Of a stretch of 60,481 bases of DNA, positions 1,873 to 39,229 are shown piece by piece. Where the stretch lies: the NCBI GenBank assembly GCA_024643985.1, contig JAHELW010000003.1:1-60481 (forward strand), given 5' to 3'. Source of the stretch: Myxococcales bacterium. GTDB taxonomy: Bacteria > Myxococcota_A > Polyangia > Polyangiales > Houyiibacteriaceae. The notes beneath the pieces are model-generated. The model was not told the origin of the DNA, made no database searches, and saw only the letters and a program-made list of their open reading frames with translations. The translations under genes were made by a program, and so were the position numbers. Position 1 is the first letter of the stretch. Each line of letters opens with the position of its first letter.

Positions 1873-4800
1873 CTAGAGCCATTTTTGGATGTGCATGCCT
1901 AGGGCGGCGGGTCTCATGGGGGAGCGGTCTTTCGGGCGCACTCGGAATCTCAGCTCGTGACCGCCGCTTGCCTGCACCGCGAAGGCGCCCCGCCAGGTGC
2001 TGCGGTCGTGGTTGCCCTCGCCCTCGAAGGGAACCACGAGCCGGGTGGACAGATCCTGCATGCGACTGCCGAACGTCACGACTGCCTCGACGTCGAGCTC
2101 CCTTGCATCGAGCCCAGGGTGCTGAAGGCTGACCTCCGCGGACACGTTGGTGCCTACGACGACCTCGTCGCCGCTCAAGCCGCCAAAGCGGACGCTTTCC
2201 ATCGCGATGTTGTTCCAGTGGGTGCGCATGTCCTCCGCCAGATCCGCGAGTGCAAACAGCGGACGGTAGTTGCTGTCGCGAAGCGCGACCGCGTCTTGCA
2301 TGGCCGGCTCGTAAAACATGTCCGCATAGTTCGTCACCATTCGGCGAGCCGAAAAGCGAGGGATGATGCTCGACATGCTCGCCTTCATGCGTTCCACCCA
2401 CGCCACGGGCACGTCTTCCTGGTTCCGGTCGTGGTACATGGGAAGAATCTCACCCTCGAGGAGCGCCATGGTGGCCGCGCGGTCGTAAGCGCTTGGATCG
2501 TGGATGGTTGCGGGCGGGAGATCGATCACCCAGCCGTTGTCGCCCCGGTAGCCCTCGAGCCACCACCCATCGTCGACGCTCAGATTCAAGCACCCGTTCA
2601 TGGCCGCCTTCATTCCCGACGTCCCGCTCGCCTCGAGCGGCCGAGTGGGCGTGTTGAGCCAGACGTCGCAGCCCGCGACCATTCGGCGGGCCTCGTCGAT
2701 CGAGTAGTCCTCGAGGAAGATGACCCTGCCGGCGAGATCGGGATGTTTGGCCGCCTTGTAAACCCGCTGCAGCAGGGCTTGGCCGTGGCCGTCCGCCGGG
2801 TGTGCCTTCCCGGCGTAGACCATCATGGCGCCGGGGTTGCTCCCGAGGAGCTTGGCGAGCCTCTCGGGGTCGCTGAGGAGCAGATCCGCGCGCTTGTACG
2901 GTGCGAAGCGACGTGCGAATCCAATCAAGAGACGATCTTCGTCGAGCTGGTCGAGGACGTCCCGCAGCAACGAAAGATCTTCCCGCCGGCGACTCCAGGT
3001 CTGCGTCAGGTGTTCCTTGAGCCACTCGATGAAGTCGGCGCGAAGCTCGCGGTGGATCGACCAGATCTCACTGGGATCATGCTCGCGCAGCCACTCCCAC
3101 TGAAAGCGATCTTCGATGCTATTGCGCCAATCGTGGCCCATCTGCCGCTCGAAGAGCCTTTGCCAGCGCGGGGCCACCCAAGTCGAGACGTGCACGCCGT
3201 TGGTGATGTGGGTGCTTGGAACGTCGTCGGAATCATCGAGCTCCGGATAGAACTGCCGGAACATGTGGCGAGCAACCTCACCGTGCTTCGCGCTGACTCC
3301 GTTGATGCGCTCCGAGTTCCTGACGGCAAGCGCGGTCGTCCCAAACTCGTTCGGCGAGCCGTTCGGCGTGTGTCCCATCGCCATGAGACGCGGCCAGTCC
3401 ATTCGCAGCACCCGTTCGAAGCGTGCGAGATACGGTCGCACCATTTCCTCTGGAAAATGGTCGTGACCGGCGGCGACCGGCGTGTGCGTCGTGAAAACCG
3501 TCGTGTTGCGGATGTACTCCAGCGCTTCTTGTGACCGGAGGCCATGCCTTTGAATCAAGTGCGCGGCCCTTGCGATCAGCAAGAATGCGCTGTGGCCTTC
3601 GTTCATGTGAAAAACGTCCGGGTCGATGTCGAGCTCCGTCAACATCTGGTAGCCACCGAGGCCGAGGATAATCTCCTGTCGCAAACGGTGGGCCAAGTCG
3701 CCAGCGTAGAGGCGATTCGTAATCGCGCGATCTTCCGGTCGGTTTTCGGGGAGGTTGGTATCCAACAGAAACAGCGGCACCCGCCCGACCTGGAGCTGCC
3801 ATGCGGAAACCTGGACCTGACCTGTCGGCAGGGGCACCGTCACTTTGAGCGGCGCGTACTGCCCCGCCATCACCGGCCGAAAGGGTGGGCTTCCAAAGTC
3901 GTTGGTGTCGCCGAGGTCCTCCTGTCGACCGTCACGATCGATCATCTGGTGGAAGTAACCGTCGTGGTAGGCAAGCCCAACGGCGCACAATGGGATCCCC
4001 AAGTCGCTCGCGGCCTTGAGATGATCGCCTGCGAGGATTCCCAGGCCGCCCGAGTAGAGCTTCAGAAACCCGGCGATGCCGAACTCCATGCAGAAGTACG
4101 CAATCCTCGGATCTTCAACCTTGGTTCCGTCGACCATCTCAGCATGAAAGCGCCTGACGGCCTCGACGTACTCCTCGTCGATCGCCAAATCCATCAAGCG
4201 GTCGGGCTTGACTTGGTCGAGCAGCGCGTGTGGGTTCTCTTTGAGCCTGAACCAGAGCTCTGGGTCGATCCGCTTGAAGAGCGAAGCGACCTCGGGGTGC
4301 CATCGCCACCACAGGTTGGAAGCAATGTCCTGGAGCGGCTGGAGCTCGTCCGGCATCGCGTTCGCGACCGTGAACGTACGGGTGTACGGCGCCGCTACCT
4401 CTCCCTCCTTGGCGGGCGGCTTCACGAACAGGCCGAAGACTCCAGAGCTGTCGCTGCTGGGTGCCGCCGAGGGCACGCTCAGCCGTTCCATCGGGAGCTC
4501 TTTCCGCCGCGCCGCACCGGCAGCGAGGGCGCGGTGGTGGGCGTCCTCGTAGTGCTCCATGAAGTTCGACCAGTCGGTCAGCTCGGCCGTGCGCAGCGAG
4601 GCCGCGCGCAGTGAGTCCCGGCGGTCGGGAGTCAGGTCGATGAATTCGAGCAACGCCTTCTTCAGCGAGTTGCTGACCTCTTCGAAGGGCACGCCTTCAC
4701 GCGCGAGGACGCGGACTCCAGTGCTGTTGCCATCGCCCTGCGCCGCGACCCACCGACCGAAGCCCGCTCGATCGGTGGTGATCGCGGGAACGCCGAAAGC

Positions 4801-12561: not shown

Positions 12562-13365
12562 TCACTGGTGTGCCTTTCGTCGCTCTTCGGCGGTCAAGAG
12601 TGGCTTCACTTCGAGCATCGTGTGGCATTGATTGCAGGCCGCCAGCAGTTGGCCGAAGATCTGTGCCTGCCCCCACGCCGTCGGCTCATCCTCGACCTCC
12701 TCGCCGGGCCGCGGAACGTACTCGTCTTCCCGAACTTTCCCCTCGACGGCCGCCGCAAATGCGAGGTCGTGAACCTCGTAGGCCAGTCGGGTCACTCCGT
12801 CGTGGCTCTCTTGATCCGGGTCGCGCGAGCCGTGCAGGGGCGCTTCGGCCAGCACCTCGGCGGCCGCCTGAAAGCCCGACGTGGAGTCCGCAAGGAGCGA
12901 CTCCCACATTCGCTCGGTTGCCCAATAGTGCCGACGCATGTGCATCTCGAGGTCCTCTCCCTCCGGACTCGGCTCGAGCTCGATCGGAGGGCCTCGGTCG
13001 AGCGCGTGATGGCACTGTCCGCATGCGTACGAAAGCCTGGCGAACGCCATGCACGCTTCCTCGAGGTCGCTCGCCTCTCGCGCTTCCTCCGCGAGCTCCT
13101 TCGTGAGCCGCGCATATTCCTTGCCCTGCTCCGGAGTCGGGACGTGCTTCATGAAAAACACGAGCTTTCGCATCGCTTGCTGAGCCACCTCGAGCTCTCC
13201 GCGGATCAGTGCATTTCGGGCAGCCACGGAGAGCGCTGCGTGCTCTTGCATGACCTGGTCGAAGCCGGCGGGCGTACCGAGCTCCCCGGACTGCTTTCGC
13301 GGCTCGCACTCGCAGCCTCCTGACAGCGCAACCGTCAACCCCATCGCAATGGCCCGCCCCAGCAT
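12562..13365 (-). CDS. Di-heme c-type cytochrome, probable lipoprotein
   Basis: Two CxxCH motifs (CGQCH, CNQCH), each at the end of a helical half; N-terminal hydrophobic stretch ending LSGGC. Confidence 0.7.
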   Translation of the reverse strand: MLGRAIAMGLTVALSGGCECEPRKQSGELGTPAGFDQVMQEHAALSVAARNALIRGELEVAQQAMRKLVFFMKHVPTPEQGKEYARLTKELAEEAREASDLEEACMAFARLSYACGQCHHALDRGPPIELEPSPEGEDLEMHMRRHYWATERMWESLLADSTSGFQAAAEVLAEAPLHGSRDPDQESHDGVTRLAYEVHDLAFAAAVEGKVREDEYVPRPGEEVEDEPTAWGQAQIFGQLLAACNQCHTMLEVKPLLTAEERRKAHQ

Positions 13366-36059: not shown

Positions 36060-36105
36060 TCGGAGCGGGTGAAGAGATTCGAACTCTCGACCTCGACCTT
36101 GGGAA
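36060..36105 (-). repeat. att site (displaced 3' half of tRNA-Gly)
   Basis: TCGGAGCGGGTGAAGAGATTCGAACTCTCGACCTCGACCTTGGGAA, identical to 39154-39199. Confidence 0.92.
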
Positions 36106-36195
36106 TACTCTCTCAGCCTAGAACACCATTCGGGAAATCCAACAACATCAACCACATGAAGTCCTGCGGCGTTGCGTGCCGTCCCGAGGTGTCCT

Positions 36196-36220
36196 GTGGA
36201 AAGTGGAAGAATTCGTGGAA
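36196..36220 (+). repeat. Putative integrase arm-type sites (left)
   Basis: GTGGAA at 36196, 36203 and 36215. AAAGTGGAA-N6-GTGGAA recurs at 39064-39084. Confidence 0.55.
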
Positions 36221-36288
36221 TATTTGGCTTCGACGTTCAGAGGGTCGAAGCCTGACGCTTAGCCCAACTGCGGTGCGGTTGGCGCCCC

Positions 36289-36597
36289 TCAGGGCACGGG
36301 CGGATCGCTACCGCGTGCTCGACTCCAGACGGCAGCGATGAGAACCTCCCTCGCTTCGCGGTTGACCGAATAGAAGACTGCGTAGGGTGTGCCTTCGATC
36401 AACAACCGCCGCACGCCAGGCAACTGGATATCGTCGCATGGTCGCCCGAGACCTGGCATCCGGGAGATGTGGTCACTTGCTGCGCTGAATGCTTCTTTGA
36501 AGGTCGCTCGGGCAGCCGGCCGGTTCGCAGCCCACCAAGCCTCGAGCTCGCGCACTTGCCACTCCGCTTCGGGCGAAATGCGGACGCGGAAGCTCAC
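36289..36597 (-). CDS. Type II toxin, ParE/RelE superfamily
   Basis: 102 aa; RVRISPEAE...MPGLGR...GVRRLL...YAVFY...IAAVWS. GTGA overlap with the antitoxin. Confidence 0.85.
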   Translation of the reverse strand: MSFRVRISPEAEWQVRELEAWWAANRPAARATFKEAFSAASDHISRMPGLGRPCDDIQLPGVRRLLIEGTPYAVFYSVNREAREVLIAAVWSRARGSDPPVP

Positions 36598-36812
36598 AGC
36601 TCTTTCATGAAATCTTCAATCGGTCGGCTCTTGCCCGCTTCACCTTGCGCCAGGCCACGCCGCACGGATGCCCGAAGTCTTTCGAGGTCGTCTTCGCTTA
36701 GGCTCTCGAAGCCATCCTCGGCGCGAACGGCGTTCAGAACAGTACGCACTGCGTCGAGCTCGTCGTCGGCCAGTTCATCGATCAATGCATGAATGTCGGA
36801 CCGGGTTCCCAT
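36594..36812 (-). CDS. Cognate antitoxin (ParD-like, acidic)
   Basis: 72 aa, immediately upstream of the toxin; ends in RRGLAQGEAGKSRPIEDFMKEL, a typical antitoxin tail. Confidence 0.75.
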   Translation of the reverse strand: MGTRSDIHALIDELADDELDAVRTVLNAVRAEDGFESLSEDDLERLRASVRRGLAQGEAGKSRPIEDFMKEL

Positions 36813-36898
36813 TTCGCTCAGCTTAAGCCCGGTGGGACTGCTCGTCCAGGCTGCGGAACAGATCTGACAGCTCTCTCATTTCCACCCTGGGTCGGGCT

Positions 36899-37078
36899 TG
36901 AAGCACACTGGCTCGTCCTGCTCTTTTCTGACACACGCCGCATCTTCTTGCGCAAGAGTGGTTCGGTCTGACCCACCCTGCCGCAAAATGCGTCATCACG
37001 AGGCAAAGGGGGTCGCTTCGCTTCATATTTGCGCAGTAAGCTCCAGAATTCTTCATCGTGCGTCAAAAGGAACCGGAC
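36899..37078. repeat. 10-bp-phased degenerate array 1, (TG-NNN-CA-NNN) x18
   Basis: Counted by eye over 18 units: G at position 2 in 16, C at position 6 in 16, T at position 1 in 12, A at position 7 in 12. Confidence 0.75.
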
Positions 37079-37092
37079 TTTGTTCGGGCAAG

Positions 37093-37119
37093 GTGGAGTT
37101 TTGTTTAACAAAACTGCAC
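37093..37119. repeat. AT-rich palindrome
   Basis: AGTTTTGTT-T-AACAAAACT (37097-37115), extendable with GTG/CAC after one mismatch. Confidence 0.75.
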
Positions 37120-37162
37120 GGCTCTCGCGTCGGGTCTTCGCCCCAAGCTCGGCGGTGAGGGG

Positions 37163-37436
37163 CGCGCTCAACGCCTTCGGCTTATTCGCGCGAGGCGGCG
37201 GCCTAGAGCCCGGTCTGACGCGTGTCCTCGTGTGCGCCGGCCCGCGACGGCAGGTTTCGAATCGGAGAGTCCAATGGCGAGAAACGCTCCACCGCTTCGC
37301 AGAACTCAGGACGACCCGCAACGGCATCTGCCACCATCACGGTCGGCTGGTAGGTCGCATGGATCTGCCAGTGCGGGAGAAAGAAGTTCTTGCCCTTGTT
37401 TGGTCCGCTGCGAATAAGCCGAAGGCGTTGAGCGCG
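37163..37436. repeat. Perfect 27-bp inverted repeat enclosing 220 bp
   Basis: CGCGCTCAACGCCTTCGGCTTATTCGC (37163-37189) and GCGAATAAGCCGAAGGCGTTGAGCGCG (37410-37436). Confidence 0.9.
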
Positions 37437-37488
37437 GCAAGCGGGGATTGGGACATCTTCGATGTCCTACAATCCCACATCTTGAAAA

Positions 37489-37618
37489 TGTCGCACTTCG
37501 CTCTGAACTGACTTCTCTTGTCGCCTTCTGCATCGTTTTGGTTCTTCGTGAAGCACAATGCGTCGTTTCACTCCAAGAAGCTCCAAAGTGCGTCACTTCG
37601 TCGCAGAAAACGCCAAGA
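37489..37618. repeat. 10-bp-phased degenerate array 2, (TG-NNN-CR-NNN) x13
   Basis: 13 units: TG at positions 1-2 in 8, G at position 2 in 11, C at position 6 in 11. Same register as array 1. Confidence 0.7.
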
Positions 37619-37766
37619 GGTGAGAGCTGGTGACAGCCTCGCGTGGCACTTCTTGTCGCTGGATGACGCACTCGCGTTCCAAGCACTTCCTGCTCGCGCA
37701 ACTTTTCGGGGTGCAAAGCCGATAACAGGGGATGAGCATGAACGCGATTCCCAATCACGAGCTTCG

Positions 37767-38222
37767 ATGACGGCGTCATGGGACGACGATCCATGGCTCG
37801 ACTGTCGCAGCGCTGGAGCCTTTCTCGGGCTAACGCCCTCCGGTGTCCGATCGCTCGTCAACCGTGGTGTGTTGTTTCGTCGCTCCACCCTCGACCGCTG
37901 GATTATCGATGGCTGCCGGCGCTATGCTCCTCAGCGGTACGCAACGTCCGGGACGGGAGGAGCGCATGAGCAAATCTCGGTATCCGGGAATCGAACGCCT
38001 GTCGTCGGGTCGCTATCGAGTGAGAGTGACTTGGAACGATCCGAAGACGGGCAAGCGAAAGGATCAGAAGAAAGTGATTGCCGCCACCAGCATGGCCGAA
38101 GCGAGCTCCCAAAGGGAGTTGCTTCGTACCCGCTTGCTGACGGGCGGCACGACCCCAGAGCACCGTCTTCGCCTTGGCGAATACGCGAGCTCGTGGATGC
38201 GTGGGAAGATTCCCACTCTTAA
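37767..38222 (+). CDS. Excisionase-like HTH (HTH_17/Xis type), apparently lacking the wing; possibly inactive
   Basis: WLDCRSAGAFLGLTPSGVRSLVNRG-VLFRRSTLDRWI lies immediately upstream of the integrase, and its 3' part overlaps the integrase in another frame. Confidence 0.55.
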   Translation: MTASWDDDPWLDCRSAGAFLGLTPSGVRSLVNRGVLFRRSTLDRWIIDGCRRYAPQRYATSGTGGAHEQISVSGNRTPVVGSLSSESDLERSEDGQAKGSEESDCRHQHGRSELPKGVASYPLADGRHDPRAPSSPWRIRELVDAWEDSHS

Positions 38223-39150
38223 GCCCTCGACGCGGGACAAGTACGCGGTGGTCCTGGACCACCATATCCTTCCCGCCTTGGGGGATTACTACGTCGACGC
38301 CATCACGCCGCAAGACGTGCTCCGGTGGCGTGATGCCCAGCATGCCAAGCCCAGCACCGTCAATTCGCGGCTGAGGGTGCTTCGTACGCTCCTCCGGGAC
38401 GCGCAGGCACAGCTCGGGCTGCCCCGGGACCCCTGCGCTCGCGTGAGAACGCTGCCGGAGGAGCCCACGGTCGGAAACCGGCTCAAGCCCGAACAGCTGA
38501 GGCAGGTCCTCGGCCATCTCCAGGAGCATGAGCGACAATGGTATCCGTTGTTTCTCACGATGGCGCTCACCGGCGCTCGCTTCGGCGAGGTCTCGGCCCT
38601 TCAGTGGTCGGACATCGACGAAGACGCCGGAGTGATCTGGATCCGGCGTGCCCAGTCGCAGGGGCGTGTCGGCACGACCAAAACCGGGAAGGTCCGAGAC
38701 GTTCCGCTCCCGCTGCCGCTCATGGCAGTGCTCAAACAGCATCGACAGCGGCTCGTTCGAGACCAGGCACCAGGGCTCTCCGAGGGATTGGTCTTCCCAA
38801 GCCGCGTCGGAACCTACCTACGGAACTCCTCGCTCCGGAAGCCCCTGGGGCGAGCTCTCGAGGCAGCCGGCGTGTCCGAGCGGTTTACCGTTCACGGTTT
38901 CCGCCGAACCTGGAACAACCTGCTCCGCCAAGTGGCGTCGGGCGCGATCACGCGATCGATGATCGGCCACGAGACGGAGGAGATGTTCCTTCACTACTCG
39001 CACATCGAGCGCGATGAGAAGCAAAGCGCCGTCGAACGAGCGCTCGCGCTGGTCGACGGTCCCAAAGTGGAACATCGTGTGGAAGGTTCCCCGCTTGGGG
39101 ACGCCGGCCGGAATGCAGACAGTTCAGAAACCACCCGTAACGACAAGTGA
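37966..39150 (+). CDS. int: Tyrosine recombinase / phage-type integrase
   Basis: N-terminal arm-binding region (GRYRVRV) and core-binding region (STRDKY...HILP). Catalytic R (TGARFGE), K (TKT), HxxR (HGFR), H (IGH) and Y (HYSH) are all present. GGAGG RBS. Confidence 0.93.
   Translation: MSKSRYPGIERLSSGRYRVRVTWNDPKTGKRKDQKKVIAATSMAEASSQRELLRTRLLTGGTTPEHRLRLGEYASSWMRGKIPTLKPSTRDKYAVVLDHHILPALGDYYVDAITPQDVLRWRDAQHAKPSTVNSRLRVLRTLLRDAQAQLGLPRDPCARVRTLPEEPTVGNRLKPEQLRQVLGHLQEHERQWYPLFLTMALTGARFGEVSALQWSDIDEDAGVIWIRRAQSQGRVGTTKTGKVRDVPLPLPLMAVLKQHRQRLVRDQAPGLSEGLVFPSRVGTYLRNSSLRKPLGRALEAAGVSERFTVHGFRRTWNNLLRQVASGAITRSMIGHETEEMFLHYSHIERDEKQSAVERALALVDGPKVEHRVEGSPLGDAGRNADSSETTRNDK
39064..39084 (+). 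repeat. Putative integrase arm-type sites (right)
   Basis: AAAGTGGAACATCGTGTGGAA, with the same 12-bp spacing as the left copy. Confidence 0.55.
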
Positions 39151-39157
39151 TTCTCGG

Positions 39158-39229
39158 AGCGGGTGAAGAGATTCGAACTCTCGACCTCGACCTTGGGAAG
39201 GTCGCACTCTACCACTGAGTTACACCCGC
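39158..39229 (-). tRNA. tRNA-Gly (anticodon CCC), CCA not encoded
   Basis: GCGGGTG acceptor stem pairs with CACCCGC; D-loop AGTGGTA; anticodon arm CGACC-TTCCCAA-GGTCG; T-loop GTTCGAATC; followed by TCCG. Confidence 0.95.

Follow-up and report, generated by a model that had tools for sequence, protein, structure and literature searches.

Helically phased arrays of a two-fold symmetric 10-bp unit beside oriT-like sites in putative integrative mobilisable elements of a Polyangiales genus

What could be the role of two stretches of non-coding DNA in which a motif resembling TG-NNN-CA recurs every 10 bp, on either side of palindromes and a 27-bp inverted repeat? The question is raised by a 60,481-nucleotide stretch of DNA from a Myxococcales bacterium (positions 1 to 60,481 of contig JAHELW010000003.1, assembly GCA_024643985.1; referred to here as the window), in which both arrays lie within an integrated element of ~3.1 kb (36060-39199) that is bounded by 46-bp tRNA-Gly repeats and consists of four genes and 965 bp of non-coding DNA. 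The element is a minimal island lacking a relaxase gene and, by comparison with related sequences, appears to belong to a family of integrative mobilisable elements that occurs in many copies within a Polyangiales genus. The same comparison indicates that the window holds two modules resembling origins of transfer (oriT), placed head to head, one per repeat type, with 220 bp between their 27-bp arms. The reading toward which we lean, with modest confidence, is that each array serves an oriT as a helically phased platform for protein on its leading side, much like the TraK region of RP4 or stbS of R388.

Column stacking of both stretches at every period from 3 to 22 gave, at period 10, a chi2 of 135.6 for 36899-37078 (27 degrees of freedom, p 2e-16) and of 85.1 for 37489-37618 (p 6e-8). 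At period 5 the values were 52.9 and 44.8, respectively, and apart from the multiples 15 and 20 the remaining periods were unremarkable in both stretches. None of 5000 dinucleotide-preserving shuffles of either array reached the observed period-10 chi2 (null maxima 67.0 and 62.8). When the same score was computed for 3,482,638 sliding windows of 130 bp across the 3.52-Mb assembly (mean 26.4, standard deviation 7.0, 99.99th percentile 64.7), the array stretches ranked first (114.2) and second (88.0), with third place at 76.8. The two 10-bp-phased arrays are real and unique within this genome, and the comparisons with shuffled sequence and with the rest of the assembly, both suggested in the original prediction made for this DNA, bear it out. 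Plain Fourier power at period 10, a further check that it suggested, proved not to discriminate (2.99 at position 13031 and 2.94 at 36891, in 180-bp windows), because the signal is spread over harmonics. Period 3 was absent from both stretches (chi2 2.7 and 6.4; p 0.85 and 0.38), and the region is therefore non-coding, as had been argued; a coding origin was rejected on this ground and because the four long open reading frames (ORFs) overlapping the arrays have no Pfam match.

The units sit at the positions given in the original prediction, and the counts stated there for 18 units of array 1 from 36899 are reproduced: G at column 2, C at column 6 and a purine at column 7 each occur in 16 of the 18, and T at column 1 in 12. 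Seventeen of these units (36899-37065) stand as the array, whereas the last, at 37069, falls inside a conserved stretch next to the nick-like site discussed below. Among the 13 units of array 2, which starts at 37489, 11 have G2, 11 have C6 and 10 have a purine at column 7. TGNNNCA in full is rare (6/18 and 3/13 units), and the pattern is therefore a weight matrix rather than a strict word. Pooled over 31 units, this matrix reads T(20) G(27) v n b C(27) A(19; purine in 26) followed by three weak columns, columns 3 and 5 being constrained to not-T and not-A. It mirrors itself about column 4 (r 0.89, reached by 3 of 2000 permuted matrices), and the symmetry is found in each array separately (r 0.85 and 0.82), every other axis giving at most 0.15. 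The matrices of array 1 and array 2 correlate with each other only at shift 0 (r 0.89). A unit of 10 bp is thus made up of the two-fold symmetric 7-mer T-G-v-n-b-C-A and 3 bp of spacer.

Such regularity might be a property of the DNA itself, without any protein: phased TG/CA steps and a lowered G+C content could ease bending or unwinding of the first 200 bp past a nick, for transfer or for relaxase-driven rolling-circle replication. The arrays do have pyrimidine-purine steps every 5 bp and G+C contents of 54% (array 1) and 50% (array 2), as compared with ~59% locally and ~64% in the window, and the lack of a detected type IV secretion system (see below) leaves room for a role of the relaxase in replication. 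However, a symmetric 7-mer in which columns 3 and 5 are also constrained resembles a target of base-specific recognition, and the single-strand folding energy of the arrays is not unusual (z -1.47 and -1.71). We regard protein-independent structural DNA as quite unlikely. An Frpo- or sso-like single-strand structure was rejected on the same folding scores.

The 965-bp non-coding stretch (36813-37777), which holds both arrays, a palindrome, a hairpin and the perfect 27-bp inverted repeat, matches 21 of the 24 other genomes of the genus, often in many copies each, and none of the 16 genomes from other families of the order; blastn found no match in plasmid or phage databases. The 24-mer core of the 27-bp arm has 50 matches in five near-complete genomes of the genus (G009, G012, G015, G021 and G024; 5-14 in each), most of them without a mismatch, against none for the reversed control. 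From an arm-keyed sample of 41 loci, 52 arm-centred modules were oriented. Their common backbone consists of the arm, an inverted repeat of one of two types (pal or hp2), a repeat-rich stretch of 200-290 bp, a conserved 45-mer (c45), a first gene and, mostly, a tyrosine integrase gene, the integrase being sometimes only 24-29% identical to that of the window. The arm is perfectly conserved and is kept even without an adjacent mobilisation gene. An origin of the 27-bp inverted repeat as a miniature inverted-repeat transposable element was rejected, as the assembly contains no second copy of the 274-bp unit as a whole and each arm is instead a single component of an oriT-like module.

Ordered outward from the arm, the backbone runs on one side through a NikA-like ribbon-helix-helix (RHH) gene to the relaxase gene and on the other through the inverted repeat, the motif YTTG↓CCC (the arrow marks the putative cut), an array from nic+24, the 45-mer and the xis/int genes. 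In 47 of 50 modules the core of the repeat is followed after 7-8 nt by YTTG and then CC or AA, mostly CCC. An inverted repeat 5' of a near nick motif on the same strand, which is the layout of an oriT, is found in both modules of the window: in module A the minus strand reads CAGTTTTG..CAAAACT and then CCACCTTG↓CCC, and in module B the hp2 hairpin is followed by ACATCTTG↓. The contexts ..CCACCTTGCCCG.. and ..ACATCTTGCCC.. are proposed as the putative sites of cutting by a relaxase of the family. The MOBP layout is an inverted repeat beside (C/T)ATCCTG(C/T) (PMC3772185), and the 19-bp repeat of RP4 lies 8 bp from nic (PMC7314908). The arrays begin 24 nt (array 1) and 4 nt (array 2) past these MOBP-like nic motifs in an element without a relaxase gene, so the suggestion in the original prediction of a transfer signal for a helper fits the context. 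Two head-to-head modules also explain why the arrays flank the palindromes and the 27-bp inverted repeat almost symmetrically, and make the common 590-bp register incidental. Nothing supports a functional meaning of this register: in G009 the homologous element has 3.8 kb extra between its arrays, and the modules are oppositely oriented, the arrays looking like direct repeats because the unit is two-fold symmetric.

Across the family, the best 130-bp period-10 chi2 exceeds 80 in 23 of 51 modules and lies above the 99.99th percentile of the module's own genome in 26, while periods 7, 8, 9, 11, 12 and 13 gave -log10 p values of at most 5.5, usually below 2.5, in the same 51 modules. The 10-bp pattern recurs beside homologous integrases and in related elements, where it had been proposed to look for it. 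In pal-type modules the array extends from 24 nt past the nic-like cut over 17-20 units, up to the 45-mer. Among the 13 strongest arrays the register relative to nic is fixed, with phase 3 in ten and phase 4 in three. Array 1 is homologous unit by unit to the arrays of loci L030, L057, L067 and L068, with no insertion or deletion over 17 units. Compared with its copies in other species, array 1 shows 75-91% identity in the skeleton columns and 51-72% in the remaining ones. When the array-1 family is set against the array-2 family, identity is still 57-71% in the skeleton but 23-31%, about the chance level, elsewhere. Variation at the N positions, noted at the outset, holds within one array, whereas between homologous copies in other genomes these positions are 51-72% conserved. 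Retention of the skeleton while other columns drift also upholds the earlier view that the arrays are not a tandem duplication. Constraint on the arrays is indicated by the recurring period-10 signal, the register, the indel-free homology and the conservation of the skeleton. A functionless pattern, arising by chance, from composition or through decay of a tandem duplication, could appeal only to the low information in six of the ten columns, and we consider it extremely improbable given the shuffles, the first and second genome ranks and the conservation described here.

The integrase and the xis-like gene adjoining array 2 recall a different kind of filament, in which the units would be arm-type sites for a long Xis/Int assembly within an attP intasome, as the original prediction had also entertained. 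Phased direct sites are known for lambda Xis and for P2 Cox and 186 Apl. However, the distance to the 46-bp core is ~0.8 kb for array 1 and ~1.5 kb for array 2, whereas arm sites lie some 100-200 bp from the crossover. Homologous arrays moreover stand beside the 24-29% identical integrases and beside first genes other than HTH_17, and head-to-tail filaments assemble on asymmetric sites, unlike the symmetric unit found here. We consider Xis/Int arm-type sites very unlikely.

Another alternative is a pure operator array, on which a repressor would coat 130-190 bp upstream of the leading genes (xis-int or toxin-antitoxin) and control excision, integration or addiction rather than transfer. The arrays always end at the 45-mer ahead of the first gene, and StbA and TraK both repress neighbouring promoters. 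Against this, the register is fixed to the nic-like motif and not to the 45-mer, the start lies 24 nt from the motif, and one array class precedes unrelated first genes. The operator explanation overlaps the leading-side platform, for which repression is one of two roles; as the whole explanation it seems to us unlikely.

Relaxase genes were found through relatives of the element. Clustering of the ORFs at arm loci revealed a 504-aa ORF on the opposite strand, at the constant position -1895..-381 relative to the arm, which matches MobA/VirD2-type relaxases (Pfam Relaxase 3.6e-25, TraI_middle 3.2e-20). Between it and the arm, starting ~40-66 bp from the arm, lies a gene of ~110 aa that is NikA-like (PF21983, 5.4e-10) with an RHH_1 match (2.4e-6); a PDB sequence search with this protein returned nothing below E 0.09. 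Of the 34 pal-type modules, 12 have the pair beside the arm, as against none of the 15 hp2-type modules, and a second relaxase type of ~415 aa occurs near some hp2 modules. When the relaxase served as the search key in place of the arm, it was detected in 18 of 26 genomes from the genus, and in four others of the 201 in the order. Among the 30 relaxase-keyed loci, four of which overlap arm-keyed loci, 17 have the arm and 16 the repeat with the nic motif, and five have arrays with chi2 above 80, including L068 (126.7), L075 (121.7) and L073 (117.7). The layout is shared by one locus from another family, L079 (relaxase 43% identical), in which GACGnC recurs every 10 bp. Past the nic-like site of this locus (G048:C722:449-4678), at ~3450-3690, ~70 bp built from such 10-bp units is truly duplicated in tandem.

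Pairwise comparison of modules revealed homology that switches at the nic-like motif. L060 (pal) is 53-58% identical to L057 and L029 (hp2) over the 45 nt before the motif and 94-97% identical over the 180 nt after it; conversely, L057 and L064 are 100% identical before the motif and 56% after. A switch exactly at this position is the trace expected from relaxase-mediated joining of two oriTs, and is indirect evidence for cutting there rather than proof of it. In module B, ~30 bp present in relatives (as compared with L064) are missing directly after the nic-like TTG, at window 37485-37488, the deletion starting at the putative cut, and the motif is followed by AAAA, unlike the CCC of relatives. 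It is because of this missing sequence that array 2 starts 4 nt after the cut, and because ~30 bp is a multiple of 10 that its register was kept.

The observations so far suggest that the arrays most likely hold a protein train that aids mobilisation of the element and restrains its integrase genes; nicking, protein binding, wrapping, repression and mobilisation are the parts of this reading that we infer. Several findings weigh against it. Strong exact-10 periodicity is lacking in 25 of the 51 modules, and many relaxase-linked modules have looser repeats of ~10-11 bp (TGTCAC/TGTCGC) with chi2 of 42-60. The class of array shows no co-variation with the type of NikA-like protein, with the first gene (HTH_17, DUF5338 or a 65-aa ORF) or with the type of integrase, so that no cognate binder can be named, and no protein has been shown or predicted to bind the arrays. 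The nic-like motif is similar and not identical to ATCCTG, and cutting is putative; with the sequence after TTG deleted or changed, the oriT of module B may have lost its function. At 80.6% completeness, the window's assembly yielded no match for the relaxase (PF03432, tblastn), a NikA-like protein, VirB4 or a coupling protein, and its sites are therefore orphan oriT-like sites, as are those of a second member of the family in the same genome (C208:1300-3000). Lastly, the five near-complete genomes have no VirB4 (PF03135, PF12846) or coupling protein (PF02534, PF12696) despite 2-10 relaxase matches each, and a conjugative route is therefore not documented for the genus. Possibilities include a mating apparatus on unbinned plasmids, one of unknown kind, or a relaxase that serves rolling-circle maintenance.

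A function in partition rather than transfer would be another way to use a protein-coated array. The arrays might form a centromere-like site of the excised circle, bound by an adaptor of the ParR, StbA or TubR type that positions or stabilises the element. The symmetry of the unit would suit adaptors of the ParR type, which are RHH proteins. R388 stbS and tubC are likewise laid out as two sets of short phased repeats (bioRxiv 10.1101/2022.04.29.490116). However, none of the four ORFs of the element (ParE, antitoxin, helix-turn-helix (HTH) protein and integrase) has a Pfam match to a partition NTPase or adaptor, relatives with a single module carry one array and not two, and the linkage is to nic and relaxase rather than to replication genes. 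A centromere is, in our judgement, improbable.

For the leading-side platform the following mechanism can be proposed. A protein that wraps or polymerises, as originally suggested, would be in keeping with a spacing of exactly 10.0 bp and with the symmetry of the unit. A small DNA-binding dimer, from the family or from a helper, could occupy one face of the helix every 10 bp, and an RHH-type dimer would suit the symmetric 7-bp unit; with RHH proteins, a palindrome of 7 bp is accommodated by a single major groove. The resulting continuous train or wrap would reach from beside nic to the promoter region. On DNA of ~10.5 bp per turn an exact spacing of 10.0 bp makes successive sites rotate by ~-17 degrees, so that the path would wind slowly left-handed and could store negative supercoiling beside nic. 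The complex may aid relaxosome assembly or melting at nic, and by analogy with TraK and StbA it may silence the leading genes (xis/int) in the donor, with a burst of integrase in a naive recipient that lacks the protein. The element of the window would depend on a relaxase and accessory proteins in trans, to which it would offer one oriT of each repeat type; the first genes transferred would be xis and int or, for module A, the toxin-antitoxin pair.

A bolder proposal, which we hold only tentatively and think more doubtful than probable, is that the arrays represent an undescribed leading-region nucleoprotein filament, built on 13-20 symmetric sites at 10.0 bp and running from one or two turns past nic to the integrase promoter. 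Its binder would be shared by a swarm of islands, and the relaxase-oriT-array unit might serve a non-classical form of transfer or rolling-circle maintenance, parasitised by relaxase-less mini-elements. The context for such a swarm is that the five near-complete genomes carry 5-14 oriT arms and 2-10 relaxases each, with no detectable type IV secretion system.

The features of the element are collected in Table 1. With att repeats at a tRNA-Gly gene, an integrase, oriT-like modules and no match to a mating apparatus in the assembly, it has the makeup of an integrative mobilisable element. A search of Rfam at E values up to 1 found only the tRNA. The putative antitoxin has no Pfam match and a weak ParD-like NCBIfam match (E 0.082), and NCBIfam gave nothing useful for naming the first-gene proteins. 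The hp2 repeat of module B is 89-98% identical in other hp2-type modules and belongs to an 80-bp piece that most copies in the genus retain at 94-98%. The 45-mer c45, 84-100% identical in 30 of 52 modules, may act as a promoter or leader: the first ORF begins 17-29 nt past its core in most modules and 53 nt past it in the window. A sigma-70 promoter scan of 36500-38000 gave no consensus site. The HTH_17 match of the window's xis-like protein is weak (E 0.067); proteins in the same position score 1.8e-6 (L028), 6.5e-7 (L044) and 1.9e-4 (the G009 homologue).

Table 1. Features of the element and their positions in the window (a dot denotes no strand; arrows mark putative cuts)
Feature	Position	Strand	Remarks
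attL, 46-bp direct repeat of the 3' part of tRNA-Gly	36060..36105	.	100% identical to 39154-39199 (blastn); left end of element
ParE-family toxin gene	36289..36597	-	Pfam ParE_toxin E 2.2e-12
72-aa putative antitoxin	36594..36812	-	Overlaps ParE start; first leading-side gene of module A; role from position
Array 1, 17 units of 10 bp (TGvnbCA + 3)	36899..37065	-	Reads away from module A nic-like site
Conserved 23-nt stretch, minus strand CCCGAACAAAGTCCGGTTCCTTT	37066..37088	-	Between nic-like site and array 1; same or very similar 23-mer in many modules
Module A nic-like motif CCTTG↓CCC	37086..37093	-	Putative cut between 37089 and 37088
Module A palindrome pal, oriT-type inverted repeat, 13-bp arms, core CAGTTTTG..CAAAACT	37093..37119	.	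Repeat search; kept in pal-type modules
Left 27-bp arm	37163..37189	+	Perfect inverted repeat with 37410-37436
220-bp inter-arm stretch, putative empty cargo/mob slot	37190..37409	.	By comparison with G009 and autonomous relatives
Right 27-bp arm	37410..37436	-	Perfect inverted repeat with 37163-37189
Module B hairpin-type inverted repeat hp2, GGGATTGGGACATC-TTC-GATGTCC-TA-CAATCCC	37444..37476	+	Read from sequence
Module B nic-like motif ACATCTTG↓	37477..37484	+	Putative cut after 37484
Array 2, 13 units of 10 bp, same symmetric weight matrix	37489..37618	+	
Conserved 45-mer c45, ..GCGCAACTTTTCGGGG.GCAAA.CCGATAAC..	37692..37736	+	Just ahead of first leading gene
Excisionase-like HTH gene (xis-like)	37767..38222	+	3' extent uncertain: frame overlaps integrase start
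Tyrosine integrase	37966..39150	+	Pfam Phage_integrase 1.4e-19, Phage_int_SAM_3 4e-12
attR, 46-bp repeat	39154..39199	.	Within tRNA-Gly(CCC), 39156-39229 minus strand

The xis-like frame overlaps the start of the integrase gene by ~250 nt in another frame, and in relatives by ~160 nt (for example, ORFs 384-758 and 599-1828 in module coordinates of L028); the overlap may be genuine, or may reflect a mis-called start or a frameshift. In the homologue from G009, 3.8 kb with MCRA and WS/DGAT genes, a lipid-metabolism cargo, occupies the inter-arm position, and autonomous relatives carry nikA-relaxase on the inter-arm side of the arm. In this homologue (L027, G009:C1:1220500-1233500) the cargo genes encode an MCRA-family oleate hydratase and a WS/DGAT wax-ester synthase, and a Fic/DOC protein replaces ParDE. 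A larger head-to-head version is seen in L059 (G021:C10:1-16500), where two outward-facing modules 9.1 kb apart enclose two nikA-relaxase operons that read inward between the arms. The member of the family at C208:1300-3000 of the window's own genome is diverged and runs from a toxin-antitoxin pair through arm, pal, nic-like motif, GTCAC-type repeats (best period 11, -log10 p 4.5), 45-mer and xis-like gene to an integrase gene that may be disrupted. In L034, L038, L041 and their relatives the first gene past the 45-mer encodes a DUF5338 protein of 120-155 aa (PF17273, down to 5.3e-7) and not HTH_17.

To our knowledge, few mobile elements have been studied in Myxococcota, and the analysis has uncovered what appears to be a family of small tRNA-targeting mobilisable islands in uncultured Polyangiales of this phylum. 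A literature search on integrative and mobilizable elements with a relaxase in myxobacteria surfaced only a work on Mollicutes, and one on oriT, helical phasing, direct repeats and auxiliary proteins, judged by title or the start of the abstract and with supplements excluded, gave, among the papers listed, none describing such an array; neither search brought up a description of the element family. If the arrays are leading-side platforms, they would be a natural and unusually regular example of DNA organisation beside a transfer origin, a long, exactly phased train of symmetric sites in register with the nick site, and a clean substrate on which relaxosome architecture and the 'zygotic' control of integrase genes could be studied by structural and footprinting methods. 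The family also raises the question of how islands move when their genomes show no mating apparatus.

How far do the arrays resemble systems already described? By Pfam domains only, the relatives resemble nikA-nikB of R64, in that a NikA-like RHH gene lies directly upstream of a MobA/VirD2 relaxase gene, beside an inverted repeat and a nic-like motif; unlike R64, the window element is without both genes. We know of no counterpart of the phased array in R64. In the F plasmid, accessory sites lie on the tra-gene side of nic. In its relaxosome, RHH-type accessory proteins (a TraY train) sit side by side on oriT and bend the DNA, with several sites in an oriT of ~400 bp (PMC12117103). The three TraY sites and few TraM sites (sby/sbm) of F contrast with 13-20 units in the family. 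At parC, phased repeats are coated by an adaptor. More generally, the parC-ParR and tubC-TubR centromeres share with the arrays phased 10-12-bp repeats, sometimes in two blocks, which a small adaptor coats into a filament or superhelix (described for tubC and AspA in bioRxiv 10.1101/2022.04.29.490116); unlike them, the window element is without a partition motor or adaptor gene, and its arrays are tied to nic-like sites.

Closest in layout are the RP4 oriT and R388 stbS. The RP4/RK2 oriT (IncP, MOBP) combines, like the family, a relaxase operon with a small accessory gene, an inverted repeat, a short gap, nic, a protein-covered first-transferred side of ~180-200 bp and a first leader gene (PMC7314908). 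Its nic, ATCCTG↓C, resembles (C/T)CTTG↓CCC of the family (PMC3772185). TraK binds an intrinsically curved region of ~200 bp in this oriT and represses traJp and traKp (PMC7314908); the arrays of the window, of 130-190 bp and starting at nic+4 and nic+24, match the TraK region in position and length, binding being putative. Unlike the family, RP4 has no exact 10-bp array of a symmetric 7-mer in the available part of its description (PMC7314908), and the family differs further in having xis/int as leader genes and an extra conserved 27-bp arm between accessory gene and repeat. In R388, stbS consists of two sets of five phased repeats beside oriT, and StbA, a small protein, represses genes of the leading region and modulates conjugation (bioRxiv 10.1101/2022.04.29.490116). 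Both systems have phased repeats that lie within the promoter of the first operon on the leading side and diverge from the relaxase operon (same source), and the stbS word C/TTGCATCAT resembles units of the window such as TGCATCG and TGCGTCA. In contrast, stbS as described there has 2 x 5 units of 9 + 2 = 11 bp with an asymmetric word, whereas the family has 13-20 symmetric units of 10 bp; the 17 and 13 symmetric units of the window show no 11-bp period (chi2 28.8 and 25.4; p 0.53 and 0.70). The window arrays moreover belong to two separate oriT modules, and the gene past the array varies, with no StbA-like gene identified.

The statement in the original prediction that no described element has this layout is not supported, given that the TraK region of RP4 oriT (PMC7314908) and R388 stbS (bioRxiv 10.1101/2022.04.29.490116) share its place and logic. 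The arrays are real and interesting, yet a categorically new system is not what they point to: their layout and probable logic are those of the RP4 TraK region, of R388 stbS/StbA and of the TraY/TraM trains of F. What sets them apart is an exact 10-bp period held over 13-20 units, a two-fold symmetric unit and a fixed start one to two turns from nic.

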